The notes: generated by a model from the letters alone, not told the origin. Positions 35,036 to 63,400 are shown, counted from the first letter of the stretch. The stretch is 64,000 bases of DNA from Callorhinchus milii (GCF_018977255.1 NW_024704742.1:26166001-26230000); one strand, 5' to 3'. Program-made: numbers and translations.

Positions 35036-35149
35036 TCACACACGTTTCAGCAGCAGGCGTCTATTCACATTTTGATTGTGGAGATGTTCAGAGCAGCTGG
35101 AAATATTGGGTATCCCATGATGTCCTGGAGATGAACCCACTGACTTTGT
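35036..35149 (-). CDS. RIMBP-like probable terminal coding exon (TKSVGSSPGHHGIPNISSCSEHLHNQNVNRRLLLKRV*)
   Basis: Strong acceptor TTTTTCTCTTCCAG, phase 0, 37 codons then TGA at 35038-35036; followed by about 3 kb of repeat-poor AT-rich sequence; no homology support for the peptide. Confidence 0.6.
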   Translation of the reverse strand, partial: TKSVGSSPGHHGIPNISSCSEHLHNQNVNRRLLLKRV

Positions 35150-35599
35150 CTGGAAGAGAAAAATAATTTACCCAAAACCACGTCTATTAATTATTATTAT
35201 TAATAATAAGAATCCGTGCATTTGATATAGCACCTTATCAAGTTGTCAAGACACCTCAAAGTGTTTCACAGGATTTTGCTGTAATGTGTAGTGTGTTTGC
35301 GGTGACAAAAGTGGCAGCCAATTTGTTCATAGCAATGTCAAGTGCTCCGGGACACTACCCTGTGCGAAGGGGGCTATATAAATGCAAGTTGTTGCTGTCG
35401 TTGTCTCACAAACAGCTATCAAGCCATGGGGATTATTGGCCAGGACACCAGGAGAAACTTTTTTTGAATAGTGCTGCAGGAAATTTAAATCTACCTGAAC
35501 AAGCAGATGAGAACTCAGTTTAATGTCTCATCTGAAGGAAGGCAGCTCCAACAATGCAGTGCATCCCCAGGAGATTTGTGCAGCACCGAAAGACATTAT

Positions 35600-36720
35600 G
35601 AGGAAGCCAGTTACTGGGGAGGTTCAAACAGACTGGAAGCAGGTTAATGTGGCTCCTATATTCAAGAAAGTGACAGAACCATACCAGGATACTATATACC
35701 CATTATCCTGACCTCATTAATTGGAAAACAAATGGAGTCAATTATCAGAATAAAAAAGGAATTTGACTATATAACAATAATCTACTAAATGACCACCAAA
35801 ATGGTTTCAGAAGAGATAGATTTTGTTTGACCAATCTCAATTTTTGAGAAGGTAACAATCCAAACTGACTATAAGAAGCCACCAGTTACAGTATAACTAG
35901 ACTTCTAAGAGGTTATCAAGCATACGGCATGGACATAGATTTGAAATTGGCTCAAAGGAAGAAAATGGGGTTGTTAGGGAAGGTGGCCTCAGATGGCTAT
36001 ATTGGGACATCTCTTTTTTCTTCTATACCTTAATATGCAGACTCAATCCAAGGTAGCTAAATTTGCAGACAACACCAAGTTGGGATAACTGTGAAATCAA
36101 AGGAGGCAGCAAAGATCTTAGAGAGGAAGATCTCATTAAGATTATGCATATGTTGATTGGCAAATACGTTCAATGCAGATAAATGACTGCGTTTGCTTAC
36201 AAAATACACAGTCATTATATTATATATAACATTATATCCTGTGAAGCACTTTGGGGCATCCTCCCAGCCTAAAATTATCTCAAATTATTTATTAATAAAA
36301 TGAAAGGCAATGAATATAGGAATTAAGAATAGGAGGCACATATACTCCATAGATGGCATAGAGATCATAGAACCATGGATGCTGAAAGATATCTAGGGGT
36401 GATAGTTGACTCTAGGGTGTTAGTTGACTCTAGAGGTGTTCACCATGGCAAAACTTGTTAAAGTGGGAGGCACCAATAAGCACAGCAAAGAGGATGCTGA
36501 GCTATAGTACCAAATTAGTTGAGTTCAGATCCCTAGAAGTCATATTTAAGATGTAGAGAGCTCTAAGCAACTGCACCTAGAATAATGAGTACAGTTGTGG
36601 TTGCCATGACATAAGGGAGCTGTTCAGGCCCAAGATGCCATGCAGAGGAGAGGAAGAAGGATGATCTCCAGTATTAGAGGAATGAGCTGTGAACAGCATT
36701 TAGACAAGCCAGTGTCATTT
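35600..36720 (+). mobile_element. Heavily decayed CR1-like LINE RT region
   Basis: DWKQVNVAPIFKK, GF....CLTNL, KFADNTKL, KDLGV, LEY..Q.W remnants. Confidence 0.75.
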
Positions 36721-38054
36721 CAGAGGAGGATTTATTGCTTCGAGCTATTTTTTGTAAAAAAAAATGTTTTGACGGTATCATGCCTGACTTAGAATGTTTT
36801 TTCCTCCAATAAATGCAGAGCCCAAATCACCAAGGAAACTGCACCAAAATAAAACATCTCCTCAGTTTGAGATTTAGGAGGAAGAAGATAATTAATCTGA
36901 CAACTACTGGATTACTTGTTTGTACAATTAACAGTCTGTTGCTATTAAATTGTCTTATCTGTGCATTTCCTCTGGATGAACCAGGAATAGTATTTTTCCT
37001 ACCCATTTCACGGATTTTGTTTGCAGCTGTCACACTGAAGCTCTCACTGCACAAATGAATGAAGGAAAAGCTCTGAACATCCTGTTGCAGTTTTCTGCAC
37101 AGCACATCTCTGTCCTGTCAGAGAGCATTTGCAAAACAAGCACTATACAGTCCATCAGTGTAAGATGCTATATATGAATAACTAGAAATATGATGGGATT
37201 ACAGAACATTCCTTAATCTGCAGAAATCATGATGTCAACTAAGATATTTTCATCTCATTATGGATATACAATGGCATTCCAGTTGAATTTAAAACTGCAG
37301 ATCAGTTCTGGAATTCTGTCATCAGTGTTTCTAGAGCTGTGCTTTGAAATGTCTTCCCAACATGAAAGGTGCTATGTAAATGTTAATTGTATTGTATTGC
37401 GTTCAAAACGATGGTAGAAAATGTCTCGTAATGAACTTGTTGTATTTGGCTTAAAGATGAACAGGTCAATTTGTGTTCCTATCAAGAAAAAGAAATTGTG
37501 TTCTTGCAATGACTTGTAAAGAGTCATATTTTGTCATTAGTTTGCATCCCTCTAATGCGCCTCCTCCTACCCCACTTTTAAAACCCGCCTTTAGATCTAT
37601 ATTTTGGAATGAGCGAGCTACTCATCCCCCCACCCTTCTCAACCATGTCCCCCCTCCCCCCCACCTCCCCCCACCCATCAATCTCGTACAGACCCCCCCC
37701 ACCCTCCATCAATCTCATCTCTAGTCTCCACCCTTTTCATGCTCGACCTCAGGCCTCTTCCTCACCTCTTCAGTCCCATATCCATTCCAACACCTTTTTC
37801 AGTTCCGTTCTCTCTTCCTTCACCCTCCTCAGGCCCATCTTATCCATTTCCTCAGCCCCATTCCCCTCCACCAACCTTCGGCTCCCAGTCAGATCTGTTA
37901 AGTTCTTTGAGATGTAAATGTAAATTGTTGTCTTTGCTGATCAGGGATTATTGGTCTGAATTAGCGCAAGGGTTTGATTCTTACCAGTTGTGTTGCCATA
38001 AATACATTCAGTACATTCAAATATACAATCAATTTGAATTTGGGAATTTCAGTT

Positions 38055-38580
38055 GTAACAACAACAAATTACATTGTATAATGCCTTTGTATAACGTCAG
38101 GAGATGGTCCCAAGGCGCTGGACAGTCAGAGATTTGGACCTGAGTAGGGCGTTGGGATCAGGGTGGGTGTGGAGGGCAGGGAGGGTAGGGGTGCCCTACC
38201 CTCCCTGCTCTCCATATACACACCCCCGAGGATCTTGAGACATTCTTTGAAGGAGGCAAAGGAGGAAGCAAGATGAAGGGATTGTGGGGTGGAATTCTAA
38301 AGGGCGGGGGCAGAGAGGCTGAAGACCCGACCCCTGATAGTGGGATGGGCCGGGCGGGGGATGTGGAACAGGAAACAATCGAACCAGATCAAACAAACCA
38401 TGGAAACAGATGGTGGTGGAAGTGGTGGTGGGGGGGGAGGCAGAGCCAACATTACTTTCCTGTCAATATTCTTTGGAAATATTCCCCCTGCTTGGGTCCT
38501 GACCCAACTGTGCAGCGCCTTGGGACGTCCTCCTGACGTGAAAGGCGCTTTATAAATGGAATCTTCTTGTTGTTGTTGTT
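38055..38580. mobile_element. Rearranged L2 3' ends in opposite orientations
   Basis: Minus-strand tail at 38055-38200 and plus-strand tail at 38490-38580. Confidence 0.7.
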
Positions 38581-40073: not shown

Positions 40074-40157
40074 CACTTTTTGCTTTAATGTTTTTGGCAA
40101 TCCAATGTTGACTTCTTCAAGAAAGCTGACTGGTGCAAGACCTCGCCTCCCATTGAC
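40074..40157 (-). CDS. RIMBP-like exon, end of SH3-b (VNGRRGLAPVSFLEEVNIGLPKTLKQKV)
   Basis: 84 nt, TTTGCAG acceptor, GTG|GTAAGT donor; NG..GL.P..FLEEV matches the last RIMBP SH3. Confidence 0.88.
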
Positions 40158-40184
40158 CTGCAAATAAAGATATAATTATTAATA

Positions 40185-43500: not shown

Positions 43501-44209
43501 CACAGCACATTGCTGGTGTTGAATTATTTGTTTTAAACACTTGCAACTTGCTTTGAATCTTTTTTTAAATGACTTTTAATTTATCGTCCAAAGAAAATCA
43601 AAAACTCATATTGCTTTATATTCGTTAACTGCACTCAGCTTTCTCACCTGGGAGTTAATAAACCTGAAGAAAACACATAAACCAGCACTGAAGATTGCTT
43701 TATGGGGAATAGAGCAAAGAGAGGAACTTAATCCTTATCAGGTTAACATCAGTAAATTTGATCATGTTAACGACCTATCTATATAACAAATTGATGTAGC
43801 AACTAGACATGTCAGGATATATAACAGTTGAAATTTGGTTTGCTGGGTGTGTTATTGATTCGGCGCTGTTCAACCTACAGACCAAAACCCCACTATAACA
43901 CAGCAATTGCGGTTTATAAAATGTCAGAATGTATTGTAGTGCGGCCCTGGGAAACACTTCTGGGGATATCAAAATAATCATAATTATAATAATCTTTGTA
44001 CTTGATATAGCACTTTTTATGTCATTGAGATAAAATAATAAGATCACTGCTGACATCACCGAACTCCACTGAGCAGCACATTGTCCACAGGAAACTGGCC
44101 AGTCAGTGCCAGAAGCAGGAAGGCTACTGCATCTCAGTGTTTCCATGATATATATATGAAACTGCAGTATAACGCGGTCAGACTTTTTAAAACATGATCA
44201 ACTGCTTAC

Positions 44210-44344
44210 CTCGGCCTCACAGAAACCATCTCTCCTTTGCTTTCCAAATGTCCAAACAATGTCCCCTTCTTTAAAGGCTAGTTCCTGACTAGGATGGATA
44301 TTGGGACTGTCTTGCAACGGGTGATAGTCATAAATTGCAAGGAA
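44210..44344 (-). CDS. RIMBP-like exon, SH3-b (FLAIYDYHPLQDSPNIHPSQELAFKEGDIVWTFGKQRRDGFCEAE)
   Basis: 135 nt, CTTTTCTAG acceptor, GAG|GTAAGC donor; ALYDY.P...SPN....EL.F..GD....DGF pattern typical of RIMBP SH3 domains; not in the ORF track. Confidence 0.9.
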
Positions 44345-47300
44345 CTAGAAAAGATAAACGGAAACAAAATACTCAGAATCAATACTAATTATCATGTGAT
44401 GTTATGGTTGTGGAGGTGTTGAGTATTTTAGAATATTTTCTGGATCACTAGCCAGACCTGGATATGGTTATTACATTTGTACATCATTGACAGTGGAATA
44501 TACAATAGCTTCCAAAAGCATATAAAGTACTTGTGCTTTGCAGGGCATATTGCAGATGAATCATAGGTTAAGTGTCCTAGCCTCTCACTAGACAAGTCAT
44601 TAACAGTTGCATTATTTTACATATTGGAGCATTTTAAGACTTTAGTAATTCCCTCAAGGTTTTCAAGATTTGCTCAGAGACCCTGAACAGATCTTGAAAA
44701 CCGTTGAAGATGTTACTTTAATATCTATAATAGGAATCTGAGCTGAGTTACAACAGATCGGCCTTGACACATCTTGGACTCACTAGTTAGGGTTCCTTTT
44801 GTGATTTAGACCTCGCTATTGCAATTGTCTTATTCACAAGGTTCCACCTCAAAGCTTTGGATTCAACCTTTCTAGATACGGCAATAATTGCATTGCTATT
44901 TGCTGTCTTCTAACTGTTTGTTTACACACATAATGTGGATTCCTTCATGTGCCCACTGGGCTGAAAGCAAAAACATATACTTCGAACAGGCGGTCAAAGT
45001 CAGGGCTCCACGAAGCAGCACCATTCATTGAATTATTTGAAAGTGTGAGGAGAAGGCACGACAGAGCAGTGGATAGAGTTGCAGTTTGTGTTCTAGGAGC
45101 TTGCTGGTTTGAATGCCAGTAGGTGCTGAGATTGCAGGTCTCAGCCAGTGCTGCAATAGGAGGTAAAATCAGCCCCAACCTTCCCAGGGGAGTGAGGGAG
45201 GGGGTCCTACTACTGGTCCCTCTTCAGAACCCTCTACTAGTTGTGTGTTTTGTGTAGTAGAGGTGAGAGAGGTCACTCTCTGCTGTGAAGCCCTGTACAG
45301 TTGAGTGGCCTGCTGACACTCACTGGCGTGGCTCACCTGTGAACACCAGTCACTTGGGCGGAGCGCAGGAGGGCAACCATGACCTGTGGAAATGCACCAA
45401 AGCAGGTCAGACCGGCATCAGAAAGGCATTTACAAGTGGGAAGGGAATTAGAAAAATAATTGGACACATTTATTTTAGATAAAAAAAGAAAACAATGGTA
45501 ATCTAAGAAGCAGGCAATATAGACAAGGAACAGCCAAACACTTATCTAGGGCAACTATTTCTAGGACATGCCTCTTATTCTACAGTTCTCCTTCAACATT
45601 AATAGATGTCAGTTTGATATATATATATATATTCAGCAACTCAGCCTGAATTAATAACGAGGCTGATCAGCTGAGTCAAGCTCTGTGATACGCAGCCTCC
45701 ATTCCTCAGGTTAGTCGATGTTCAGTAAGAGGCTGAAACCCCTTGGGTAGGTTATTATAACTAATTAAGAAATAGGAAGTAAAGCCAGTATCCTGCAGCT
45801 CAATGAGTTGGAAGTGTAATGCACAGTGCGATCAGCCTGTCAAGTATGGCCATTAAGAAGAACGTATTATAGGAATGGGGGAGGGGAAGAGCAGGTCGAG
45901 GTCTCTGTCTAACACCCAGAGACCATTCAGTTTGATAAATATCATAACGTTGCTCATTTCAACATCACAATTTTCACCACTTTTGTTTCTGTTCTTGTGG
46001 ACAAACTAATTTCATTTTTATACCATTTTAAATTAAGCCGCATTGGCAAGTTGCACAGTCTGCTCTGAGACCCTACCCCTGAGTGGAAGGCGTTAGCTAC
46101 ATAAGTGCAAGTCGTTGTTGTTGCTCTCCACTGTGTTGCACAGTCTGCTTTATGTTTGAAAGTGTGGCAGTAGAACAATCCGAGGACATCAGCAGCAACA
46201 ACAAATTACATTACATTTTACATCAGCACAAAACTCAGTGCTCTGTGTCAATCTGTACTGCAGGTAGTGAAAGATATTACTTGAAGGTTACAATGAACCA
46301 TGAAACTCCGTCTGTTGGAACCATTTTCAGAAACAAAAAGTAATTTATTTACCTGCTCTGTTCATGTGAATGAATCAACTTTGTTTTAAAGACCATTTAT
46401 TTCTAAGTTTCAAAGAGCAGTATGAAGATACGGCTGAATCCTTGCTCCCAAAACACCCCAAATATCAACCGAGTGTGACTGTCAATCATCCTCGCTTGTT
46501 CAGGTTAAAAAAGATTAACTCTTCAATTATCAATATGGATCACCGTGGCAAAAATCACATGACTTTCCCCAAGGGAGATAGCTCGGCCACAAACACCAGC
46601 ATAAAAAGGAATAAAAACACAAATGCAGGACATCTACAGCAGGTCAGTTTACAGCACAGAAAGGAGCCACTCAGGCAGATGTGTCAATGCAGTTGCTAGC
46701 TGACTTCCTAACTGGAGCGATTTGCTCTCATCCTTGTTCACCCCTCGCCCCTCTATTTCCTTGTAACCTTTAAAAGGGGGCATAATCTTACAAGGGGACA
46801 TAATTACAATCGTACAAGGGGCCATAATCTTAAAATAAGAGCTTGGCCATTTAAGGAGTGGAATCAGAAAGCATGTGTTCATGCAAAGGGTAGTAGAGAT
46901 CTGGAACTCTCTTCCCCAAGACTGAGGTGAATAGATTTCTTTTTAGGTCACGGTATCAAGGGATATGGGGCGGGTAATTGAAGTTGAGTTACAAATCAGC
47001 CATAATCTTATAGAATGGTGGGACAGTCTCGAGAGGCTGAATGGCTTATCCCTGTTCCACAAACTGTTTTTCTTCAACAGTCATTTATGGTGAGGCTTTC
47101 CACATTGTAAGAACCCACTGTCACAATGCACTTTTTCAGTCCCATTATGTTAGTTGTGCTGAAGAGGACCATGGAACCATATAAATTTATAGCACAGAAG
47201 AAGGCCATTTGGCCCATCGCATCTGTGCTGGTTCTTTGAAAAGCACTATTAAGGTGTAGAGACTTAATAGGTTTCAGTCTGATGAACCTCGATCAACACT

Positions 47301-47455
47301 CATGAAATTTCTCAACAAAATAAAATGATTCTGGTAAAATACAGAGTGTCAAAAGGTGGGTATAGTGGAACTTATTAAGTTGATTTGCAAAGAGTTTTTG
47401 GCAATTAGGTGCACCATTTCCAAGAGTTGTAATGGTTAGCAACATAAGAGCATAA

Positions 47456-47765
47456 GAGTCCCGTAGCTCAGTGGTTAGAGCGCTTGCTTTGCACGCAAGA
47501 GACCTGGGTTCGATTTCCACAGGGTGAAACCTTGGCAAGTTTCCTTACTCCATGTGCCTGATAATAATCCCTCAAGAAAAAATAAACAATAATAAATTGG
47601 TCACTTCAATCCATGACTGTTTGTGGGACACTGTTGTGCGCAATTGGCTGCCGCATTTCGCCCACAAATATAGTCAATTCACTTTACAGTCTATTCTGCA
47701 AAGTGCTTTGAGACGTCTAGAAGATGTGGAAAGCGCTATATCGAATGCAATAATTATTATTATTC
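47456..47765 (+). mobile_element. tRNA-derived SINE
   Basis: A/B boxes and family tail. Confidence 0.88.
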
Positions 47766-47864
47766 TAATTCACCTTCCACCTTCCTGGTGGTTGTATGTC
47801 CCGAACGACCTATGTACTACATCCCATAATGTTATTTCCTAAAAGAAAACTATGTAACTTCCTG

Positions 47865-48548: not shown

Positions 48549-49814
48549 GTCTCCCTAGGGAGCCTGTTCCACAGGAATTTACACCCCTGCAATCGCAAGT
48601 TGTGTCCTCTGGTTTTACTATTCTGGCCTAGTTGAAACAGCCAGTCATGATCTACATTGTCTAGACCCATTAGAATCTTAAAAACAGCAATCATATTACC
48701 TCTCAATCTTCTCAACAGTATTAACAATTTGAAACAGATTTCTCCCTATAATACACCATATTGCAAGAGTGTGCTGGCCCAAATTCTGCCACTGCAAATC
48801 ATGTCCCACCTGGTCTCTGTGGAAATAACAAACTTGCATCCAGCTAAGCTCCCACTGTTATGTCTTGCACTATTGCACATGTAAACAATATTTCCAAACT
48901 TTATACTCTTAATAATCAGGTTAGGTGCACTGGGGTTTACAATATATCCCAGCAAACTTTAAAACTCTCCCTATTTACACTGTCTACATCTTGTACCAGA
49001 GTAAAGAATGCTTAGGTTCTGTAACTGACACCTGAAGCCTCCATCTAATGACTGTGGAAAATCAGCTTTCAGATTAAGGCTGTATATAAAAATGTTCTAA
49101 AATTCTGCCCAATCTTGAATGTAAATTTTAAAACAATGGCTAAGGCTGGGACACCTCCCCTTCCCCTCTCCATCACCTGGTGTCCAACCTGTTCTTGTCA
49201 AGTGCTTCGAGACATTACCCTGTGCAAAGGGCACTATGCAAATGAAAGTTTTTGTTGCTGTTTTTGTAGCTCTGATCAGTAATAAATCACATCTTTTTAT
49301 ATCTGAACAAGTAATAGAGCGTGTGCTTGAAACATGGCACTGTTGCAGTTACAAAAATTCTATAAAACAAAAAGAACTTGTAAAGCCCCTATCAAAACAA
49401 CTTACATTTATATGGCAGCTTTCACACAAAGAGCACTTATAGTCCTATGATGGGTAAAGGTCTTCAAGCTCTTAACAGTAATTACTAGTATATACAGTGA
49501 CGTTTTTTGTGAATAATTCTGTAGCCATTTTACTCACAGCAAAGTTCTCAGACCTGAGGTGAATGCCTACTTATTTTAGTGACAAGCACACCAGGAGAAA
49601 CTCCCTTAGAGATGCTCTATAAATCCTAGTAACTAATTTAGGTTGACTTACCATTCTTGCTTTAGGATTACGTGTCGACAAGAAGGAGCAATCCTGAGAT
49701 GATTTGATTTCCTAAATTGAAAAAAGGAAATAAAGTAATTATAATCCTTGATTTGGTAAAGCAGCTTTCATGTTGGAAGGATGCCTCAAGGCACTTCACA
49801 GGACACAACAGTGT

Positions 49815-50629: not shown

Positions 50630-50960
50630 CTACCAACCTCCACTCGGTGGGCTCCAGCCTGCTTCATGTCCCCCGCATCACCCGCCCCACCATTGGCGGG
50701 CGGGCCTTCTGCCACTCTGTCCCCACCTTCTAAAACTTCATCCTGCAGTCCCTCCACCTTGCCCCCTCCCTTGCCTCCTTCAAGATCCATCTCAAGACCC
50801 TTCTCTTCAACTGTGTGTTTTCGGTTACCCTCCTTCCCCCCCCTGCCCTCCACCCTCCCTGATCCCGACCCCCAGCTCGGGTCCGAAACACTGATTGTCC
50901 AGCACCTTGGGACATCCTCCCGATGTGAAAGGCGCTATACAAATGTAGTTTTGTTGTTTT
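50630..50960 (+). mobile_element. L2 3' end
   Basis: GGCGGGCCTTC...TTGGGACATCCTCCCGATGTGAAAGGCGCTATAC tail. Confidence 0.75.
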
Positions 50961-51541
50961 TGTTAAAATCATGTCATTGAGAGCACTCTGGCAAGTTTCC
51001 CACTGCTTGTTCAGATAGGACCACCCTATCCATTTAGGGATTTGCCTTGTAGGGTTAACAGGAGCTGAGTAGGAGAAATCCTTGCTCCAAGCATGGTTTC
51101 TGTAAAGATGATACAAACATTCTTGTGTATTTGAAGCATAAAAAGCCTTTTGAAATATAAAAGTGAAAATTGCAACCTGTCGAGGGTTGATTAACATTGG
51201 TGGTAATTATCACATTGTTGATCAATGCAGTTAAAGAGGCCAATGACTAAAGACTGGTTGAATGTGTAAGCCCTGCACCCCACCCCCACTCACATTCCAG
51301 CACATGGTTGGGCCTGATACCAGCCCACATCACAGCAATAAGTTTCTTCTTTCTTTTGTCACATTGCACACATCTGGTAAAATGGCGGGTGAGATAACTT
51401 ACCACCAACATTGTCCCTTTATTCCTTTAGCAACCAGCTGGTCGTATTAAATAATTCACTTAACTAGCTCCCTCAGGCATTTTTAATGAAGAAGCAAATG
51501 TTTCAATAGAAAGCCAAGCACAGGCTGCAAAAGATACATAC

Positions 51542-51730
51542 CTGAAATTTCTCAGAGCAGTCACTGGGGTGACTGGCTGGTGAAAGACAGGACAGTTCAG
51601 ACAAAGCCTTCTTTTGTGGTTGGCAGTTCTGAAAGAGGACAGTAACCTTCCCAGACACCAGACCATTGGTTCCGACTGTCTGAACACTGACTTGAAATGG
51701 TACAGTCAGGTCAAGATCTTCCAGCACAGT
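51542..51730 (-). CDS. RIMBP-like exon, FN3 C-half and linker (TVLEDLDLTVPFQVSVQTVGTNGLVSGKVTVLFQ...SEKFQ)
   Basis: 189 nt, AACAG acceptor, CAG|GTATGT donor, phase 0/0; L..L....(Y/F).VSVQ....G..S FN3 strand F/G pattern. Confidence 0.83.
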
Positions 51731-52929
51731 CTGTTATTAACACATGGAAGAAAACAGATCACAGAATTGATGGATGAAACAGAATATGGAATAAACAATA
51801 ACTTACATTTTTATTGTACCCCTTCACGCGTGGATTGGATTGCTTCAAAACATATCGAAGCATCATTGAGGGAGCACTGGGCTGTATTTTTCTTGCCAGG
51901 ATTGATGACCTTGGTGCTAAGGCAACACAAATCCTTGACCGTCCATCAACCAATCTGGTCTGTATCTGCAGCAGTGATTCAGCATTCACTTGTCAAGATT
52001 AAATGGCTGGGTCCCTTGACACTGATTTCATTACTCAAATGAAAAGATAATGCAGATGGGGTTGGGAAAGTAATTGGCAAACCCAAATGCATGTCATTTT
52101 CCCATAAAAGGAGATGTCATGGCAAGACGTGATCGATATCCTGTAACAATTTACCCTGGAAAAAAATGAAAACCTGACTGTGTGGTTTGATGTTCAGAGC
52201 TCGACAATATATCCACATGGTCAGAACCACAGATCAAACATCCAAAACAGAAAGGAATCTTACCCGTCACATTAAACTATTACAGATCATCAAACCTCTT
52301 CAATGATTAAAATGAAGTGAATAATAACATGAAATGCACAAGGTGAAAAGGTCGGCATGTGCAGTGATAATTACTGTACAGGCTCCTGTTGATGTCCCAG
52401 TGCCCTGGGGGGAAACACTGCCCGTGCTTTTTTGGGAGCGTTTGCTTCTGAATTCCCTTTGCTGGTGCTGTAGTCCTTCTTTGAGAGAATAGCACCTTTG
52501 AACCTGCCACCAAGGTGGAGCACAGCAGTTCAGGGAATTCCAGTTAAACTCAATCTTAAAAGTGACAATTGTCACATCACATTCTGTATTTTAACCCAAT
52601 GAAGACCATCATCGTGGTTTAGCTACACTTTAGTAAAATCTTCTGTAAATATTCAAGGCAGGAATTAATTTGCCTTTTACCCTGCTCACTTGCTTCAAAG
52701 ACATCAAGCTTATTGAGCCCTAGTCTCTAATTAAATTTGCGTGCTAACCTAACAAAGGGATATATGAAAAGAAGTTTAATCACATCCCTATGGGAGATGC
52801 AGGAAACTCATCTTGTAGCTTACAAGATCACAGCATTAATAAATTAATCACAGCTACCGGAGCTTGGATACTCTTTAGCAAGAAGCAGAACTATACTTTG
52901 TTTGTTATAATGCTTATATTTTCTGCAGG

Positions 52930-53330
52930 ACACTGGGGATCATCTTCATTGCTCTCTACACTGATTCCAGGGCCTTGGCGGCTCCCTTATGTCGAGCCAC
53001 CAGAACTACAGGCACTACACAAGATGTGGCCTGACCACAGCACTATACAGCTTGAGTACGACATTTGGGGATCTGAACTCAACTGATTTAGCAATGTAGT
53101 GCAGCATTCTGTTTGCCTCATTTATTGCTGTCTCACACTGTTTTGACATGGTGAGCGATGAATCAATTAATACCCCTATATCTCTTTCAGCTTCCCCCTT
53201 GGCAAGTTCTATCCCATACATGGAGTACACATTTTTAATTCCTATCTGTAGTGCCTTGCAGTTATCTGTATTGAACTTTGATCAGTCATCAGTCCATGTG
53301 CATACTTTACCAAGCTCTCTGTATCAATCT
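52930..53330 (-). mobile_element. CR1-like fragment
   Basis: ERDIGVLIDSSLTMSKQC..A..ANRML.YI......LYSAVVRPHL. Confidence 0.8.
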
Positions 53331-53834
53331 GCCTGATGCGGCCTGATGTATTAGATAATATATTATTAAAAATCAGTAATAAAGAACAAAAGTACTTTCA
53401 TTATTATAGTGTCTGAAATATCTGCAAGCGTGTCACAGATAATCATTGCCAAGTTTAGTGATTCTTTTTGTAGGGAAATGCAGCAATCATTTTGCCTAAA
53501 CAGCCATGAAGCATATGATAAATTAATCTGGAGGATTATTGGCTATAACACAGGGAGAAACTATTTTCTTTTTAAAGATTACAGAATCTTTAACATTCAT
53601 CTTTAACATTCACTGTGGTTTAGGGTCTCATCCAAGAGATGACAGATCTAACACTGCAGAGCTCTCCCAGCACTGTACTGGAGCATTAACCCACACTATG
53701 AGTTCAAGACTCGTTGTGGGGCTCGAACCAACAACATTTTGACCCAGAGATGAGAGTGAGCCAGGCTGACAATGAACACTGTTGTTGTCAACATTGTATC
53801 AAACAGAATAAAAATGAATGACAAAGCTCAGGTA

Positions 53835-54535
53835 ATAAATCTAGGAGTCCAGTTCGACCCCCAACTGTCCTTCCTCCCCCACATCTGGTCCCTGACCAGC
53901 AACCCTTTCTTCCACCTCCGCCACATTGCCCGCCTCCGACCGTACCTTACCCCAAATGCAGGCGAAGCCCTCGTGCATGCGATTGTCCACTCCTGCTTGG
54001 ATTACTCCAATGCACTTCTCATCGGTCTCCCCAGCTCCATTATTTACAAGATCCAGATCATTCAAAACTCTGCCGCCCACATACTGATTCCTGACCAAAC
54101 TCCGTATCCACATCTCACCAGTTCTGGCCAGGCTCCACACTGCTCCCCATCACCGAATGGATCGACTTCAAGATCCTCATACTTGTGTTCAAATCCCTTC
54201 ACCCCTGGCACCTCCCTACCTCTCCTCACTCCACCACCCGGCACCTCCGCTCGACTGGCTCCGGCCTCCTTCTCGTCCCTCGCATCAGCCCCACCATTGA
54301 GGTCATGCTTTCAGCCACTACTCTCCAAAACTCTGGAACATTTTCCCTCAATCCCTCTGCCTTGCCCCCCCCCTCCCCTTTTTCAAGGCCCACCTGAAGG
54401 CTTTCCTGTTCGACTGTGCTTACTGCCATCTCCCCCACTCCCACCCCTCGGCTCGGAGTCAGGCTCCGCCATTGTTAAGCGCTCTGAGATGCTACCCTGC
54501 ATGGAGGGTGCTATATAAGTGCAAGTTGTTGTTGT
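53835..54535 (+). mobile_element. L2 3' fragment
   Basis: NLGVQFDPQLSF..HI...LDYSNALL.GLP; (TTG)n tail. Confidence 0.88.
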
Positions 54536-55079
54536 AAATAATCCTTACATTTGATAGCGTCTAATGCTTATTTTATATAAAACCCTTTTATTATAGTTGC
54601 ATTTCTATTTTATATCAAGGTTGCTTTTGAAATGTTCCCTTTTTGCTCTACTTCTAGGAATTTACTCTGATTTTTTCCAATTGTTTATATTTTTGCAGAA
54701 ATCCATCACCATGCTTAAGAGTTTCCAAAACAGACTGAGAATTCGAGATATATATGCCGCCTACACATGCAAATGCTCTTATTTTTAACAACCCAACCTT
54801 CCCCTGAAATTTTAATGACTGCTGCTCAGGCAACTAGAACTTACAGATTTACTGAGCCATATGCTGTATCATTGAATATTTTAACACAGGGGTTAAGATT
54901 CCAAAAGACAGGACTTTCAAAAACAATTTTCTCATCATTTAATAGAATTACAAAGAATGGACAACATTCTAACCTCTTATAAACTAAAGATGTTTTGGGG
55001 AGAATCTACGAAATTAAACTTTGAGTCTAATCAAAAGAGAATATTTTCTCAAAGAGTGTTATGTACTTTAATTCCTTAC

Positions 55080-55133
55080 CTTTGTGCAATCTGATCCCAT
55101 CACCGACTTGTGAAATTCGCCATCAATGAATAT
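55080..55133 (-). CDS. RIMBP-like small exon, FN3 middle (IFIDGEFHKSVMGSDCTK)
   Basis: 54 nt, TTGTTAG acceptor, AAG|GTAAGG donor, phase 0/0; continues GYR|IFIDG. Confidence 0.82.
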
Positions 55134-55630
55134 CTAACAAGTAAAATAAATTGAGTAAAAAAGATAATCCTTGCATTTGGTGCAGTACCTTTATCAGATC
55201 TTCCAGAGAATACAATAGAAATTTACAGAAACATCTAAGATCTTAATATTTGTACTGGTATCACTATCTAATCTATCTTCTGGAGGTTTATCTAGAGGTT
55301 TACCCAGAGGTGTGACCCCATCACCCCCACCTCGCCTGACTCCACTGGCTCCCCATCACTCAGAGGATCAAGTTCAAAATTCCTGTCCTCACCTTCAAGA
55401 CACTCACTTTCTTGCCCCCTTCTACCTCTCCAACCTGCTAACCCCTTATCAACCTGTCTGAACAACATGATAAGGCGCTATATCGAATTTAAGGATTATT
55501 ATTAATGTCTCTTTTTTTGTAAATGAGTATATGTTAGATAATACTATGAAACAGATTATTGTTTACATTAAAGCTAAAAAATTCCATGTTCAGTTGGTCG
55601 CAAACTGTTAGTCACCAGTCTATAACATAC

Positions 55631-55761
55631 CCTATAGCCTTGGACAGACGTATGATTGCTGGATCCCTTTTCATCCGTACCAGGCTTCTCCCAGTTAACC
55701 ACCAGGTTGCTCTGGCCGACTGGTTTTATAATCCGGACTGAGACAACTGGTGCAGGGGGCT
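55631..55761 (-). CDS. RIMBP-like exon, FN3 N-half (EPPAPVVSVRIIKPVGQSNLVVNWEKPGTDEKGSSNHTSVQGYR)
   Basis: 131 nt, TTTCTCCAG acceptor, AGG|GTATGT donor, phase 1/0; FN3 pattern P.AP...V.W..P....V.GY. Confidence 0.86.
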
Positions 55762-56489
55762 CTGGAGAAAGGAACACAATAATTAATGTAAATTATAAAT
55801 AAGGCAAAAAGCATTCAAAAGGACAGAAATGTCCCTGTGCTCATTTATCTTGCAGATGTCAGGGAAATAGCTCTGAATTGTTTGTCTCTGGAGACAAACA
55901 GGAGTTTGGTTTGCATTAAGCAACTATGTTTATGGGATTTGTTATGTGAGGTGACCAACCCACACTTATCTAAAGTAAGCCCTTTGCCCTACTTTTGTAA
56001 GGAGCCCAGTGAAAAAAAAGTGAGGGTCTATTACTAAATGTTTCTTGCCCTGGCCTGTTGTAGCATACCGTTACACAAGGATTACTGATCGTATTAAACC
56101 CAGAATCCACGACAATGCATTACCAGCTCATTTTATTCCGCCTGCCACTATATTTTATCGGCCACCCTTAAGTATTCATTACTTTAAGCCAATTTTGATC
56201 ACAGACTGGAATTGAAGATTTGCTTAAGGCTACAGCATTTATTTATAACCACAAATCTTACAGTTTAAGAAACAGCATTTTGGGTTAGTCCGTGTCAGAA
56301 TTAAGAGATTCATTGATGGGTGGATAAAATGATCACGGTTTTAACAACATGTAGAAAGAGGACATTTGCTCAGGAAATCAATGTGGTCTATCTGATAGTC
56401 AATGCTGAAAAGTATTAGACAATTATCATGACGCTCTAACATTTTTGTGACCTAAATAGAAGTTAACCCCAAACTGAAAAGATTAACTG

Positions 56490-56810
56490 GGAGTCCTGTA
56501 GCTCAGCGGTTAGAGCACTCGCTTTGCAAGTGAGAGACCGGAGTTTAATTCCAGGCAGAGGGCGAAACCTTGGGCAAGTTTCCTTACTCCACACAGAGCC
56601 TAATAATAATCCCTCCAAAAAACCAAAAACAATAATAAATTGGTCATTTTCAATCTACGACTGTTTGTGGGACATTGCTGTGCGCAATTGGCTGCCGCGT
56701 TCGCCCACAAATATACAGTCAATTCACTTTACGGTGTGTTCTGTGAAGCGCTTTGGGACGTCCTCCCAACGTGAAAAGCGCTATATCAAATGCAAGGATT
56801 ATTATTATTA
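56490..56810 (+). mobile_element. tRNA-derived SINE, young short subfamily
   Basis: GGAGTCCTGTAGCTCAGCGG head to (ATT)n tail. Confidence 0.9.
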
Positions 56811-57394
56811 AAATGGCAGAGATCGGATTGCACAGGCCCAGAAAAGACATATACCATAAAGACCCATAGATGTAAGCTGTATCCCTTTAGCCATACACCC
56901 CAAGATCTGATGAATAAGAGATTAAATGATGTTCTTTATTTGAAGATTTCTGAGTTTCTTTCCTCAATTTACTTATTAATATAAATGAGTGCTCAATTAA
57001 AAATTACTCTTTAATAACAAGTGACTATTGTGCTCATGTTCTTCACCTTTATGCACATAATATCAACTTGCTAACACTTTGATGAAAGTTCTGCTGGATT
57101 TGATAAGTGCTGGTAAGTATTAAAACTATTTTGCTCTGAGCTGTGCTGGAACATCTGTTTTATCAGATAATCCCAAACCTCCGTCTCCCTGAAAATTAGT
57201 TTTCACTCGACATTGATTTGAAAGCATTTACTTTCTGAGATGGGGATGATTACACTGCCAGGTTACTGAGCAACCGTTACATATGACAATTAAAGACATC
57301 TTTTTTATATAGCCAGGGAGAACCTAGATGAAGGGCCAAGGCCCATAGTACAGGACATCACCAAGGGTAGAAATATAGTGCTTAACTTTGTAAC

Positions 57395-57765
57395 ATTTCA
57401 AAGCACTTCACAGGGAATTGCTGTAAATTGTGTTTTGGTATGTTATGGCAGCAGCCAATTTGCCCACAACAATGTGCCACAGATAATTATTAAGTGAATG
57501 ACCATCTGAAGGATTGTTGACCAGGACACTGGGAAAAACTTCTCTTTTTGAATAGTATCATGGGATTTTTAACAATCACCGAAACAGATGGCTAGGATCT
57601 CAAGTATACTGAGATTTCATCTGAAGAACATCTCCTCTAACATTGTAATGCTCCTCCAGCACTGGAATATCAGCCTAGACCATGAACTCAATGTCCCCAT
57701 GTGGGGCTTGAACCCACAACCTTTGGAGCCAGAAGTGAAAGTGCTACCAACTAAGCCAATTGGCA
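57395..57765 (-). mobile_element. Degraded DeuSINE-like element
   Basis: Reverse match including head GGGGCTTGAACCCACAACC. Confidence 0.65.
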
Positions 57766-58349
57766 CATCTAGAAACAGTCTGATATTGTGTTGCGAGTTT
57801 GCAAAGAAATGAAGAAAAAAATATTTGATTAAAAAGGCTGGCCACCGTTGGATAGACCACTACTTTTCAATCAGTTCAACCTAAGGACAATTTTTTCTGA
57901 CATTCCAGCTCTACATCCCTCAAAATGATGATGATGATGAGTGACAGACTGCTTTTTCTTTTGCAATGCCCTCAGGTACAAAATAATTTATGTGTTTATC
58001 CTCTCAAGAAATGTTACTTTTAAAATGTGTTCAAAGTTACTGTAAAATCGCTTTCGTCAAAAAAAAAGTTTGGAGAGGTTTTGCTTTTTAACTGGGCATA
58101 CTGGCCTCAACAGGTATGTATTAATGGACCAGCATAGAGGGATTTGTGGCTACTTTCTGCACTTCCTCTCTGACATCTTTATATGCACTGATTATTGGCT
58201 ACTGAGTATGTTGCAGGATAACGTACTGTCTCTGACCATCACCTGTCCTAGTATCTCATGCTAAAGTTCTCTCAAATTATTTTACTGACAACTGAGGTAT
58301 TTCAGCTCTAGCACCTGCATTAAGATACCATTTAAAGCAATAATATAAA

Positions 58350-58765
58350 AATAATGATCCTTACATTTGATATAGCGCCTTTCACATTGGAAGTCTAAAG
58401 AGCTTCACACGATTTACTGTAAAATGTAGTGAACGTATTTTTTGTAGGTGAATGCGGCAGCCAATTCACACACAGCAGTGTCCCACAAATAGCCATAAAG
58501 TGAATGACCATTTGTAATTGGGGGATTGTTGGCTCAGGCACCACAGTGGAGAAACTCTCTTCGCTTTTTGAATACTGCCATGAGATCTTTAACCTCCACC
58601 TAAACAGGCAGACAGGACCTCGGTTTAACTTCTTTTCTGAAGAAAGACACTTCAGACAATGCAGGGATTTGTTGCTGAAGTATCAAAGAATATTTCAGTT
58701 TCAAAGATCTGGTGTGAACCCACAACTTTCTGCCTCAGAGACAAGAGTGCTACCAAATGAACCAG
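58350..58765 (-). mobile_element. Degraded DeuSINE-like element
   Basis: Reverse match to head, core and tail. Confidence 0.7.
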
Positions 58766-59089
58766 ACTTTTGGCTCAGGACTTCAATTGTCGAATATTGA
58801 ATCGTGATATGTTTTGACAACATGATTACGTGCTATCAAAATGTTTCATTATTTTATCTAACTGACCAGGGACAAACTGACTAAAGCTTTAACAGATGTA
58901 ATTGTGTCACATAGTGTAGGACAATATTAAAATAAGAGAGCACAGACAAAAAGCTGTTGTTTTGAAAGTTAATCATTGTAATTGTGATTATCAAGTTACT
59001 GCGTTGAGAAAAAAGACATTTAGAAGAAAGAAATCACCATCTTTGTTTACAATTATATCTGACAAATATCATTGGAATTGTTAATTTAC

Positions 59090-59492
59090 CTTGTGCCATT
59101 GTTGGTCCTCTTACTCCCTGCATAGCAGTTGCTGCTGTCCACCGTTCATGGTCTTCTCTGAGATTTAGTGTCAACATATCTGATAGATTGCATCCTGCTG
59201 CTATTAGTTGGCATGTCTCACTAGTATTTCCCCCGGATCCCTGTGTGCTTTTTGGGTCATCCGCACCACAGTCTCCTGAGCAACACTGAGCAGGGTCAGC
59301 AGACTGGAGTGAGTGGTGTTGCTCCTGCTTCTCTCCTGCAGTTTGCCAGCGAGTCTCACTAATTGAACATTCCAGTTCATTGTGTAGCCTTGATACCAAA
59401 GGGCGCTGCACATGTTCTTGATTTGGTGAGGAAATAGACACTGAACTGGGATCCATTGCTGAGAATGACCCAGTGGTCACAGAAGGGGTTAC
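59090..59492 (-). CDS. RIMBP-like exon, Ser/Thr/Gln-rich linker ([17 protein letters not shown]...GVRGPTMAQ)
   Basis: 403 nt open frame, CTCTCTACAG acceptor, G|GTAAAT donor; phase 0/1 fits both neighbours. Confidence 0.78.
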
Positions 59493-59542
59493 CTGTAGAG
59501 AGAAGAATGAATTGGGTGAAGTTTGCAATCTTTTTAAGCATT

Positions 59543-59816
59543 TTAATAATCCTTGCATTTGATATAGGACCTTATCATGTCTTCGAGACGTCTCAAAGCG
59601 CTTCACAGAATGTATTGTAAAGTGAATTGAGTGCATATTTTGTGGGCGAAACGTGGCAGCCAATTGCGTACAGCAGTGTTCCACAAACAGTTGTGGATTG
59701 AGTGACCAATTTATTATTATTATATTTGTTTGAACGAATTATTACCCCCGGAAAAGCGATCCCCCAATTGACTAACAACCGAGGCAAGTGCTCCAACCAC
59801 TCAGCTACAGGACTCC
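59543..59816 (-). mobile_element. tRNA-derived SINE (internally deleted long subfamily)
   Basis: Family head and tail on minus strand. Confidence 0.85.
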
Positions 59817-61074
59817 ACCAATTTTGTTGCTTAACACCAGCGAGTGGTTAAAAAAAGTCACAAGTATTACCCCATTTTTCTTAAGGCAACTAAAAAGAAA
59901 GTTTCCAAAAGCTCTTTAACAAGGTGTTAGATAAAATAAATAAGCATTATAGGTAAGTAATAAATAATCCTAGCATTTGATATCAACCTTTCACGTTGGG
60001 AGGACATCTCAAAGCACTTCACAGAATTTATTGAAAAGTTTAGTGACTGTAAATGTAAATGTAGATGAAATCAGCAGTCAATTTGAACACAGCGATATCC
60101 CACAAAGAGACATGGAATGAGTGACCAATTTTATTTGGGGAATTGTTGGCCATGACACCAGAAGAAAACACCTTTCTCTTTTCAAGTAAAGATCTGGAAT
60201 CTTTTGTAACATCCATCTGATAGACAGCTAGATTATTATGTATCTAGAGACAATGTAATGATGTCCATATTGACTATAATTGTCTATAATATTAGAATCA
60301 TCCATTTATTCAGTTGGGTCTGACATTTCAGCGAGGCCATTTGAGAATATGGAAAGTGATCCTATTTTAAAACATTGTAATGACGTTTCTTCAGCAAGGA
60401 ATGGAGCGTTTAGGGGAATACTGCAATTTCAAAATGTTTAAAGACGGCCCAGGGTGTGAAACGCCTCCTGATTCTTTACAATGGTTGTCCCAAAGATTTC
60501 AACAGCTGGTAGTTGTTTTTGATTGCAGTGGTTTAGTGCAGCTTCTTGGGATTCCATACTCAAAGACTGCCTCTGAGTTGGGAACAGTAGTTGGGGGCAT
60601 TAAGCAGAAATCCAAGATTGTGAAAAGCAGTGATGTATTTAAGAGAAAATTTGATGTATACATGAGGGAGAAAGGAATAGATTTGGGGAACAGGAGTGAT
60701 TGAGGGGAGTGGGGAATATAAATCCAGGCACAGACTAGTTGGGTAGAATGGCTTGTTTCTTTAACGTATGATTCCATGTGTTTCACAAATATTGCAAATG
60801 TAGCACTCGAATCCCTAAAATCCAGCTCCCAGAACCTCCATTGTTGGGGTGGGGGGGTGGGGGAGTTACATCTGCCGACACTCCTTAGATGTCCTTAGAC
60901 AGATGGAAGAAAAGGATTGTTCAACATATAATTAATTGTCACATTGAATTTGTTATGAAACATTACATTTTTCAACTTTTTAAAACAAAAGTGATATGTT
61001 TATTATTTTTTAATCAAAGTAAGCCGATTTCACATGCAATAGTTTGAGCAGATTTTAGTTATGGTGTAGTTTAC

Positions 61075-61317
61075 CTGGTAGTTACTGCTATGTCCCTGCT
61101 GAAGCTGTTGGTAGAACGCTAGGATCCTTTCTGGGCTACTCAGCTGTGCATTCAGAGTAGACTTGCTCTGAGGTGTGTGTGCACGATGGACATCATCTGC
61201 CTCATCCAGAAAGCTGGCTGGAACCAGCCCCAATACCGCATTCACTTCAGCGTGGTACAATCCATGGCTATCTGGGAACCCGGTGACTCGGACCACATCT
61301 CCAACAGAGAGAGGCAA
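61075..61317 (-). CDS. RIMBP-like exon, rest of SH3-a (LPLSVGDVVRVTGFPDSHGLYHAEVNAVLGLVPASFLDE...SSNYQ)
   Basis: 243 nt, TATCAG acceptor, CAG|GTAAAC donor, phase 0/0; SH3 GLVP..F motif. Confidence 0.87.
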
Positions 61318-62890
61318 CTGATAAAACAATACAACAAGGAACAAAACTGCAATATCAAAGCATGTTCAATGTTAGAAACAAGTTTCATCAAAGGAAACCA
61401 TCTGTACGTTCACCTTATTATTCTGTAAGGTGGCCAAGGGCTTTCTTCATCGAATATTGATGAAGACCCTGTGGGCCTAGCACACCAGTGCTCCAATGCA
61501 CCTTGCAATTGAGAGATAGGACGAGGGTTCCCAATACAGTGAGTAAATGGTCCAGCTCTAGTAAGACAACAATAAGTAGACTCATCCCAAGCCACTCTCA
61601 TGCACTTTCCACAGCACTGACAAGTGGTCTGGCATCAAATGACTGCCCATCCGATGGGCTAGGGGTGATGAACAGTAGAGAAAAATGGAAAGGGACAGAA
61701 CAACAAGTCTCCTAACATTTTATAAACACTGAATTAAATCATCTCAAATTAATCATAGACAAATGTATTGCATGGTGTGACAGCAGAAAATGTGAAATCT
61801 GGATATATAGAAAATTCTTTGCTAATCCTCTTTGATGACCTTTCACATCAGCGTAGGAGTCAAGACTATTCCCGCCCATTATTCAACTCAATCTGAATCA
61901 GTGGCACCTGAGCCCTGGTTATGATCAATTTTCCATAATTCTGTTGCAATCTTCAATTTTAAGACAAAATGGTTCTACGAGCTAAGACTGGGTGGAATTG
62001 CAGGCTTTGGGTTTAATCATGCACATCAGTCAGGTCTAAAGGGATTCACTCACAACTCGCCAACCTGATTTAATTTAATTTAATTGTCAGAGAGAACACC
62101 ATCAGTATCTGGGCTGGATTTCAATCCAAATCTCAGGAGGGTAAGGCCAGCCATTTAGAGATTGCATCTCTCAGCCCTCTGAGTATAGAAACATTTCAAA
62201 AATATTACAAGATAAACCTGTAATAGGTCAGCCACCTGTGTTTCACAAGTGTTACTGCATGGATTAGATCGAATGACAGTGACAAAGAATAAAGGTCAGA
62301 GGGCTGAATTCACTCATGGTTTTAAGACTAGTAATCTAGAATTTAAGGTATGCAGAGTTTTGAAATTTCATATATTTAGACACAATTTGGAAGCTATTTT
62401 TCTACAGTTGGAACAGTAGAAAAGCAGTTTTCTACAAAACGCACAGCCACCGCACATTACAGTAAATCATTTGAAGTGTTTTTAGATGTCCTCCCAAAGG
62501 AAAAGGTGCTACATCAAATGCAAGGATTATTATTAATAATCTATTAAGAGTGAATTTAAGAATATTCCAAAATGTTGCACGATCTTAAGCTTTAAGACAA
62601 TGGTCTTTTCAGGCCCTGGTTGTTTGCACACTGACAAACTCTGCTCTCTAGACAGAATTTGTCACACAATAACATGCTTTCCCAACCATTGGTATCAACC
62701 AGAACAATGACTAGTAGTATCACTGGTTAGCTCAGTTGGTAAACGCATCACTAATATAAAACCAAGCCACACAGATCCTTAGCAGTGCTCTGAGATGCTA
62801 TCTTGTGTGAATGGTGCTATATAAAAGCAAGCTGTTGTTGTTGTTGAGCATCCCAGATTTAATCCCCATTCTATGAAGGACAGGACTAAC

Positions 62891-63232
62891 ATAATAATAA
62901 TCCTTGCATTTGATATAGTGCCTTATTATGCCTTCGAGACGACTCAAAGCCTTTCGCAGAATATACTGTAAAGTGAATTAACTGTATATTTTATGGGCGA
63001 AACACGGCAGCCAATTGCGCACAGCAGTGTCCCACAAAACCTTGTGGATTGAGTGATCAAAATTTTTTTAAGGGACTATTACCACGGAAAAGCGATCCAC
63101 CAATCATACTGCTAGGTAAACAGAGGTGTGTGGAGTAAGAAAGCTTTCCCAACGTTTCGCTTTGCCTGGGAATCGAACCCAGATCCTCTCGCTTGCTAGG
63201 CGAATGTGCTAACCACTATGCGAAAGGATTCC
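62891..63232 (-). mobile_element. tRNA-derived SINE, long subfamily
   Basis: B box GGTTCGATTCCC and family tail on minus strand. Confidence 0.85.
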
Positions 63233-63257
63233 ACTTCAACTTCAAAAGATCACTCAC

Positions 63258-63400
63258 AGCAGGCAGGACTGTGTGGGGCATGTTCTCAGAAGGGTGGTAG
63301 TCAGCATTGGCTACACATGACCTGTAGATTAAAGATGGACTGGAATCCACAATGTTTCCCCTTTGACTGGAAAGAGAGTCCAGAAGACCAGGATGCAAAC
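63258..63400 (-). CDS. RIMBP-like gene, first exon visible in window; start of SH3-a (LHPGLLDSLSSQRGNIVDSSPSLIYRSCVANADYHPSENMPHTVLPA)
   Basis: 143 nt, TTTTAG acceptor (phase 1), GCT|GTGAGT donor (phase 0); CVANADYHP joins LPLSVGD of the next exon, resembling RIMBP SH3-1 (CVARYSYNP...ELPLTAG). Confidence 0.78.

Follow-up and report, generated by a model that had tools for sequence, protein, structure and literature searches.

A probable C4orf50 orthologue between JAKMIP1 and CRMP1 in Callorhinchus milii, with a RIM-BP-like SH3-FN3-SH3 C-terminus

RIM-binding proteins (RIM-BPs) are built from three SH3 and two to three FN3 domains and have been divided into two classes, Rimbp2 and Rimbp3/Tspoap1; the phylogeny that defines these classes sets 'divergent' sequences aside in a supplementary table (PMC7565545). 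C4orf50 has been called poorly characterized (PMC13657826). Here we describe a stretch of 64,000 nucleotides from Callorhinchus milii (GCF_018977255.1 NW_024704742.1:26166001-26230000), hereafter the window, which corresponds to C1:26166001-26230000 of the 0.99-Gb assembly. Its minus strand carries, between positions 35036 and 63400 (counted from the first letter of the window), a series of exons that a preliminary description, made from the sequence alone, had read as an unrecognised and possibly lineage-restricted RIM-BP paralogue. Our results indicate, with a probability of about 90%, that these exons are the 3' 28 kb of a ~51-kb orthologue of vertebrate C4orf50 (DUF4527), encoding a coiled-coil protein with a RIM-BP-like C-terminus.

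Exons, transcripts and extent of the gene

The nine exons initially proposed, supposedly all with GT-AG ends and matching phases, were each found with their lengths on the minus strand within 35036-63400 by a search for open AG..GT segments. An AG acceptor is present in 9/9 exons and a GT donor in the first eight, the ninth closing with its stop codon at 35038-35036. Once spliced, they amount to 1,496 nt, and the frame that opens at the third base of the first exon runs for 497 codons up to the stop. The stop-free frame of about 497 aa is thus real, but it represents neither all the coding sequence of the window, since a 60-nt exon had been missed (see below), nor the entire protein. Chance AG..GT open segments are abundant in the region (38 candidates with a length of 143 nt, 126 with one of 54 nt), and it is therefore homology and RNA, not splice signals, that mark out the real exons. 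When sawshark, sturgeon and bowfin proteins are used in tblastn searches, eight of the nine exons are matched, with 37-94% identity, and the ninth is recovered by alignment with the C-termini of ray and bowfin homologues.

Contigs from four runs, X1 to X4, taken to be RNA by guess, were aligned to positions 44101-64000, a stretch that leaves exons 40157-40074 and 35149-35036 outside. X2 record 8 (2,024 nt) aligns as segments 44208-44344, 51541-51730, 55631-55761, 59090-59488, 61071-61317 and 63258-63402, joining seven exons at the predicted borders; parts of this splicing are repeated in X3 records 11 and 17 and X4 records 18, 20 and 24, and X1 record 7 is a contig of 7,738 nt. Contig borders and predicted exon borders agree within 1-4 ambiguous letters. 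Between 51730 and 55631, X2 record 8 contains 54 unplaced letters, which is the length of the micro-exon predicted there. The gene is transcribed and spliced.

Between 44344 and 51541, 59-60 letters are left unplaced in three contigs from two studies (X2 record 8, X3 record 11 and X4 record 18), and the transcript therefore has one further exon. The corresponding intron contains 12 open AG..GT 60-mers, among which 49711-49652 was chosen by eye, unscored, for its GTAAGT donor and a pyrimidine tract better than those of the others; the end of its product aligns with '..K..M' ahead of the second SH3 domain in homologues. We infer that the missed exon is best placed there. With this addition, the window contains 10 coding exons for 517 aa.

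A decaying remnant (pseudogene) or a processed copy has next to no chance of accounting for these exons. Such a remnant might explain why a search of proteins up to 2000 aa long yielded no annotated product of the gene, and why the linker exon is weakly conserved. It is nevertheless at odds with an open frame maintained over 10 exons with canonical splice sites, with domain exons that are 55-79% identical to those of fishes separated by hundreds of millions of years, and with spliced contigs that reproduce the exon sequences with 0-1 differing letters; a processed copy is excluded because introns are present.

The first exon in the window begins at an AG acceptor in phase 1 and is hence internal. 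X2 record 8 extends 590 nt more in the 5' direction, no part of which aligned within 63403-64000. In a search of the own genome, residues 1-1349 of the sawshark homologue (P0001) matched ten further pieces on the minus strand of C1:26231001-26252414, that is, 1-22 kb past the end of the window. These pieces have a fraction of E, K, Q, L and R residues of 0.49-0.57, and P and G are scarce, a composition suggesting that the ~1,350 N-terminal residues form a coiled coil. The first of them is an open frame that starts at a Met right after a stop and resembles the sawshark N-terminus. The gene thus extends over C1:26252414-26201036 (-), about 51 kb, of which the window holds the last 28 kb. As the first exon in the window is internal and the upstream exons lie beyond it, the 497-aa product is roughly the C-terminal third of the protein. 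All 14 own-genome matches of P0001 fall in this one locus of C1, which indicates a single copy.

Identity of the gene and kinship with the RIM-binding proteins

The encoded protein is arranged as a probable coiled-coil rod, a conserved DUF4527 core, a divergent SH3 domain, a linker, one FN3 domain, a well-conserved SH3 domain and a short tail; the linker that follows the N-terminal SH3 is ~170 aa long and disordered, with one short conserved helix. DUF4527 (PF15030) is the Pfam family of C4orf50, and only the last ~50 positions of its profile are encoded in the window. When seven single exons were scanned against Pfam, four gave no match, SH3 was found in 44210-44344, and in exon 61075-61317 DUF4527 reaches 22.3 bits (E 9.9e-5) with a cut-off of 29. 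Because this match is below the cut-off, family membership rests on homologues and synteny. DUF4527 scores in homologues are 68-397 bits (101-397 in gar, sea turtle, opossum and the sawshark and sturgeon relatives). The relatives found with the second exon are a sawshark 'uncharacterized protein C4orf50-like' (1,795 aa, the best match, 67% identity), two sturgeon models and a bowfin 'RIMB2 protein, partial' (481 aa), which shares the SH3-FN3-SH3 arrangement and ends in the same way at its C-terminus. Identity of the spliced model is 56% with the sawshark protein over 399 aa, 49% with a devil ray protein over 505 aa and 47% with a paddlefish protein. In the FN3 tree, the window, sawshark and devil ray sequences group together (98*), and gathering the 25 vertebrate C4orf50 rows needs one change.

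A full HMMER search with the bowfin protein returned 565 representatives at E <= 0.001, 89 of them at <= 1e-30, and names were looked up for 30. 'C4orf50 homolog' is the name of the representatives in gar, loggerhead turtle and opossum, so that the gene is a catalogued one and cannot be called unrecognised. Ray, paddlefish and teleost members carry the names of coiled-coil look-alikes (golgin-, CENP-E-, restin- or myosin-like), and proteins with a canonical RIM-BP layout were also among those named (RIMS-binding protein 2-like in a nemertean, TSPOAP1 in a caecilian).

The kinship with RIM-BPs that had been noticed at the outset is confirmed, as is the SH3 - single FN3 - SH3 layout. FN3 and SH3 profiles were run against all 3,151 stop-to-stop pieces of the window, on both strands, and only seven domain exons match: three FN3 exons cover profile positions 3-99 once, and four SH3 half-exons make up two SH3 domains. 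No further SH3 (next match E 3.2) or FN3 (next match E 3.1) is found in the whole window on either strand, which rules out a canonical RIM-BP restored by FN3 or SH3 exons hidden in the introns; no third SH3 is found in full-length vertebrate homologues either. Among solved structures, the six best chains for the bowfin sequence are all RIM-BP SH3 or FN3 domains, from 2csi (6.4e-12) to 2csp (3.9e-5): SH3 domains of RIMBP2 (2csi, 2csq, 1wie), SH3-II and SH3-III of fly RBP (4z88, 4z8a) and an FN3 domain of RIMBP2 (2csp). The bowfin N-terminal SH3 matches KIAA1666 (2ege, 0.007). Three confident domains (pLDDT 89-98) are present in an AlphaFold model of the bowfin homologue built from a 37-row alignment, the remainder consisting of disordered linkers and a single short helix. 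By fold, the model is best matched by 2csp, 6q9m and 4z88 (TM 0.88-0.93), along with 2csi and 4z8a. In the C-terminal SH3, the ligand-binding motifs are still those of RIM-BPs (A.YDY, DGF and GL.P..FLEE).

This likeness is what the preliminary description had translated into a RIM-BP of ~497 aa, possibly restricted to one lineage and deprived of two FN3 and one SH3 domains. The closeness of its SH3 and FN3 domains to RIM-BPs among solved structures, the presence of only one FN3 and two SH3 domains, and the lack of a near-identical annotated protein (of up to 2000 aa) would all suit such a paralogue. We nevertheless consider it very unlikely, given the C4orf50 annotation in several vertebrates, the extension of the protein by ~1,350 aa upstream, and the position of its domains in trees. 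The latter include 18 RIM-BP proteins, two of which had their names looked up. In the FN3 tree, two RIM-BP FN3 sets form clades of their own (99*, 100*) and the window FN3 falls outside; in the SH3 tree, the C-terminal SH3 of the family forms a clade (99*), separate from those of RIM-BP SH3-1 and SH3-2 (99*, 100*), and the vertebrate C-terminal SH3 is placed together with the SH3 that follows the FN3 in invertebrate proteins (33 rows, support 86). The N-terminal SH3 adjoins RIM-BP SH3-3 (starred set, 34 rows, 96*), with long branches. An ordinary RIMBP2 or TSPOAP1 orthologue is ruled out by the trees, in agreement with what had been anticipated, and by the chromosomal position. Nor is the gene restricted to a lineage: the same C-terminal module occurs in coral, molluscs, an annelid, a brachiopod, hemichordates, echinoderms, Ciona and amphioxus. 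As the trees place its domains outside the RIM-BP clades and no hidden exons are present, the C4orf50 family is, judging from its domain sequences, an old, metazoan-wide sister family of the RIM-BPs and not a reduced RIMBP paralogue.

This kinship is visible in databases, through Pfam Ig_RIMBP2 matches and the bowfin name 'RIMB2'. In the literature naming C4orf50, we found no published statement of its kinship with RIM-BPs, nor of a possible common origin with JAKMIP1, to which we now turn.

JAKMIP1, the long invertebrate homologues and a possible mode of action

The gene order on the minus strand is JAKMIP1, the C4orf50 orthologue and then CRMP1, as it presumably is in human (JAKMIP1-C4orf50-CRMP1). 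The position directly upstream of CRMP1, already assigned to the exons in the preliminary description, is borne out by tblastn matches to CRMP1 exons at 7402-928. JAKMIP1 exons run from C1:26347207 down to 26256385 (-), with residues 1-47 at 26347067-26347207 and 825-909 at 26256385-26256639, and the last coding exon ends ~4 kb upstream of the Met exon of the C4orf50 orthologue (C1:26252414). JAKMIP_CC3 is found at three loci in the genome; since all 14 matches of P0001 are on C1, none of them lies next to the JAKMIP paralogues of C7 and C13. The gene order is the same in sturgeon, where P0002 (1,838 aa, 'Dihydropyrimidinase-related protein 1') is a chimera with amidohydrolase domains, in which C4orf50-like exons reaching as far as the second SH3 run on into CRMP1 exon 2; it shows that neighbours can be fused by automatic models. 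In a moray eel, JAKMIP1 lies two locus tags away from the gene of this family.

Proteins of 2,500-4,400 aa that end in (SH3-)FN3-SH3 were found in amphioxus, two hemichordates, starfish, sea urchin, crinoid, scallop, abalone, an octopod, a snail, an annelid, a brachiopod and a coral, and a shorter form in Ciona. JAKMIP_CC3 (PF16034) lies near the N-terminus of 9 of the 22 non-vertebrate relatives scanned (8/9, 0/8 and 1/5 in three batches), namely those of amphioxus, Saccoglossus, Glandiceps, scallop, abalone, Argonauta, Owenia, Lingula and Stylophora. It was not found by Pfam scan in three echinoderms (longest isoforms included), the snail, Ciona, the shorter Lingula and scallop models and three unnamed proteins, which rules out its being universal in non-vertebrate relatives. 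None of the 11 vertebrate family members scanned carries it, and in Callorhinchus milii the domain sits in the separate upstream gene. The resemblance to JAKMIP1 extends far beyond this domain. In BLASTP alignments, residues 23-830 of the amphioxus protein match 16-824 of the 909 residues of JAKMIP1 (E 5e-67), and similar matches are obtained for abalone (14-617 with 13-604), Saccoglossus (18-773 with 12-721) and coral (42-711 with 14-696). The C-termini of these same giants align with C4orf50.

It could be asked whether, as in invertebrates, the exons of the window merely terminate a long transcription unit that begins with JAKMIP1. JAKMIP1 is indeed on the same strand, only ~4 kb away; invertebrate homologues are single proteins with both parts; some turtle entries of the family are named JAKMIP1; and, in TCGA breast tumours, JAKMIP1 is the transcript most strongly co-expressed with C4orf50 (r = 0.642), ahead of transcripts such as UNC13A, SYT4 and SCG3 (PMC13657826). 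A single unit nevertheless appears unlikely to us. The JAKMIP1 match is complete to residue 909/909 and runs across a stop, the downstream gene has a Met start directly preceded by an in-frame stop, a start that the sawshark protein shares, and the turtle 'JAKMIP1' entries lack JAKMIP_CC3, like the other vertebrate members scanned.

Since a JAKMIP part of nearly full length stands at the N-terminus of invertebrate homologues in six phyla, JAKMIP1 and C4orf50 may be the two halves of one ancestral gene, and the fission of such a gene is the simplest reading of the JAKMIP data. We lean slightly towards a fuller version of this reading, in which an ancestral metazoan JAKMIP-SH3-FN3-SH3 gene would have been split in the vertebrate stem, its halves remaining head-to-tail and still cooperating, so that the microtubule/kinesin transport of JAKMIP1 would be linked to RIM-BP-type SH3 ligands in regulated secretion. 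Alternatively, the invertebrate giants could be annotation chimeras, a real risk as the sturgeon P0002 is precisely such a chimera with CRMP1; their recurrence in six phyla and through several annotation pipelines argues against it.

As for the mode of action of the C4orf50 orthologue, its coiled coil would dimerise and serve as a rod or tether. Its C-terminal SH3, which has kept the RIM-BP versions of the ligand-binding motifs, should for that reason bind PxxP sequences, and could hook proline-rich partners as RIM-BP SH3-II and SH3-III do; by analogy with the RIM-BP SH3 model, whose ligands are RIM, Ca2+ channels and JIP1/Aplip1, a role in vesicle transport or regulated secretion is probable, shared with the neighbouring JAKMIP1, which is likely to be its former N-terminal half. 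The genes co-expressed with C4orf50 are enriched for regulated and Ca2+-dependent exocytosis (PMC13657826), and this co-expression is the one functional hint that we found in print. C4orf50 would thus gain a working hypothesis where none is in print, that of a RIM-BP-type SH3-FN3-SH3 module carried on a long coiled coil.

Several points weigh against the C4orf50 reading or what is built on it: (i) the DUF4527 match in the window itself is below the cut-off; (ii) no protein closer than 67% was found with the second exon (among proteins of 143-2000 aa), and none closer than 46% with the largest upstream exon (proteins of 628-2000 aa); (iii) the second SH3 is not universal, as many annotated orthologues stop after the FN3; (iv) the first Tyr of the ALYDY motif is missing from the N-terminal SH3; (v) none of X1-X4 is recorded as RNA, even though spliced contigs would be hard to explain otherwise; (vi) the trees come from quick searches, over 71-104 columns, with 83 FN3 and 123 SH3 domains; and (vii) the co-expression data are observational and come from human tumours. 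Regarding the second point, the JAKMIP1 of a close relative is present in databases with 94% identity (72-97% per exon), and the gene may lack an annotation in the closest relative that has been annotated, or figure there only as a longer product. Regarding the third, the opossum, alligator, turtle and several teleost (acanthomorph) models, as well as that of sawshark, stop a short way past the FN3, and in the turtle isoform P0019 the end of the FN3 is skipped and the apparent second half of a second SH3 is spliced in; the orthologues ending after the FN3 reflect either a loss in progress or alternative 3' ends. Regarding the fourth, the N-terminal SH3 may bind PxxP differently or not at all.

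Feature coordinates, repeats and comparison with known systems

Table 1. Coding exons of the C4orf50 orthologue and position of CRMP1 in the window.
Feature	Positions	Strand	Content	Evidence
Exon, 143 nt, internal, phase 1	63258..63400	-	End of DUF4527 region and first half of N-terminal SH3	tblastn match to sawshark P0001 and sturgeon P0002; SH3 profile positions 3-23, E 2.3e-4; spliced to next exon in X2 record 8 and X3 record 17
Exon, 243 nt	61075..61317	-	Second half of N-terminal SH3 and conserved short 'SPERI..' helix motif	Pfam SH3_2 E 7.2e-4; 67% identity to sawshark C4orf50-like protein; spliced on either side in X1 record 7 and X2 record 8
Exon, 403 nt	59090..59492	-	Linker, weakly conserved, predicted disordered	tblastn 37.5% to P0001; matching region of folded homologue pLDDT < 50; present in X1 record 7, X2 record 8 and X4 record 24
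Exon, 131 nt	55631..55761	-	First part of single FN3 (Ig_RIMBP2)	Pfam PF25523 (Ig_RIMBP2) E 5.9e-7, 29.9 bits (cut-off 27); FN3 profile positions 3-48, E 1.3e-13; within X2 record 8
Micro-exon, 54 nt	55080..55133	-	Middle of FN3	17/18 residues same as P0001; FN3 profile positions 47-65
Exon, 189 nt	51542..51730	-	End of FN3 and start of linker	FN3 profile positions 65-99, E 3.8e-8; tblastn match; in X2 record 8, X3 record 11 and X4 record 18
Exon, 60 nt, inferred placement	49652..49711	-	Linker just ahead of C-terminal SH3	
Exon, 135 nt	44210..44344	-	First two thirds of C-terminal SH3	SH3 profile positions 6-51, E 9.1e-22; 72-79% identity to sturgeon and bowfin; in X2 record 8, X3 record 11 and X4 record 18
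Exon, 84 nt	40074..40157	-	End of C-terminal SH3	SH3 profile positions 48-67, E 6.7e-5; tblastn match; 72 more letters on this side in X2 record 8, beyond the aligned stretch 44101-64000
Last coding exon, 114 nt including TGA at 35036-35038	35036..35149	-	Short tail	AG acceptor, in-frame stop
CRMP1, downstream neighbour	928..7402; exons 7402-7313, 2987-2799, 1011-928	-		tblastn with CRMP1 part of sturgeon P0002, 64-90% identity

Besides the exons of CRMP1 listed in Table 1, a long open frame lies at 25956-27329 on the minus strand, in a GC-rich region. It contains a stretch that would correspond to the conserved N-terminus of long CRMP isoforms, and it is probably the alternative first exon of CRMP1. 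This candidate first exon would lie ~9 kb downstream of the stop of the C4orf50 orthologue.

The same part of the window contains a cluster of simple and minisatellite repeats at 22090-27949, to which its strong GC and AT skews are due: (CA)n at 22090-22553, 43 copies of a 21-nt unit at 23747-24715, a G-rich 27-nt unit at 25430-25955, (AG)n over ~800 nt at 26477-27290 and (AGGG)n at 27698-27949. Introns of the C4orf50 orthologue contain SINE-like repeats (47421-48084, 56053-57380, 59373-60036 and 62693-63356) whose loose ends look tRNA-derived. They open long proline-rich frames on the plus strand and are very abundant in the contigs of X1-X4 (summed word depth up to ~3e5). All the listed contig joints run from repeat to repeat, with sides of 18-31 letters; they are due to these SINE-like elements and were left unused as splicing evidence.

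All these results point to an ordinary, seemingly unannotated orthologue of a catalogued gene, and the claim of a new lineage-restricted scaffold falls. Compared with the other vertebrate C4orf50 homologues, with which it has in common the DUF4527 core, the SH3 and the Ig_RIMBP2 domain, the gene of the window keeps its second SH3, as do those of ray, gar, bowfin, sturgeon and paddlefish, whereas this domain is missing from the opossum, alligator, turtle and several teleost models.

Compared with the invertebrate giants (the amphioxus 'JAKMIP3' of 3,890 aa, the abalone 'CEP250-like' protein of 4,296 aa and others), the C-terminal FN3 and SH3 are 30-42% identical, and weak matches to the DUF4527 core are found in some of them. 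Unlike the orthologue described here, however, the giants have a near full-length JAKMIP part in front, which in Callorhinchus milii is the separate gene JAKMIP1; the latter has its own stop, and no sequence of the C4orf50 orthologue matches JAKMIP_CC3.

Finally, the comparison with RIM-BPs (RIMBP2, TSPOAP1/RIMBP1, RIMBP3 and Drosophila RBP) reveals the same SH3 motifs (A.YDY, SPN, DGF replacing WW, and GL.P..FLEE) and an FN3 of the RIMBP2 type, with 2csi, 2csq, 1wie, 2csp, 4z88, 4z8a, 6q9m and 2ege as best PDB matches. The C4orf50 orthologue differs from them by having two SH3 domains and one FN3, its FN3 and SH3 being ~30-40 aa apart, by its long N-terminal coiled coil and DUF4527 core, and by its chromosomal neighbourhood. 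With the C4orf50 family, the published phylogeny of RIM-BP-related genes, which has two classes (PMC7565545), would gain another branch.

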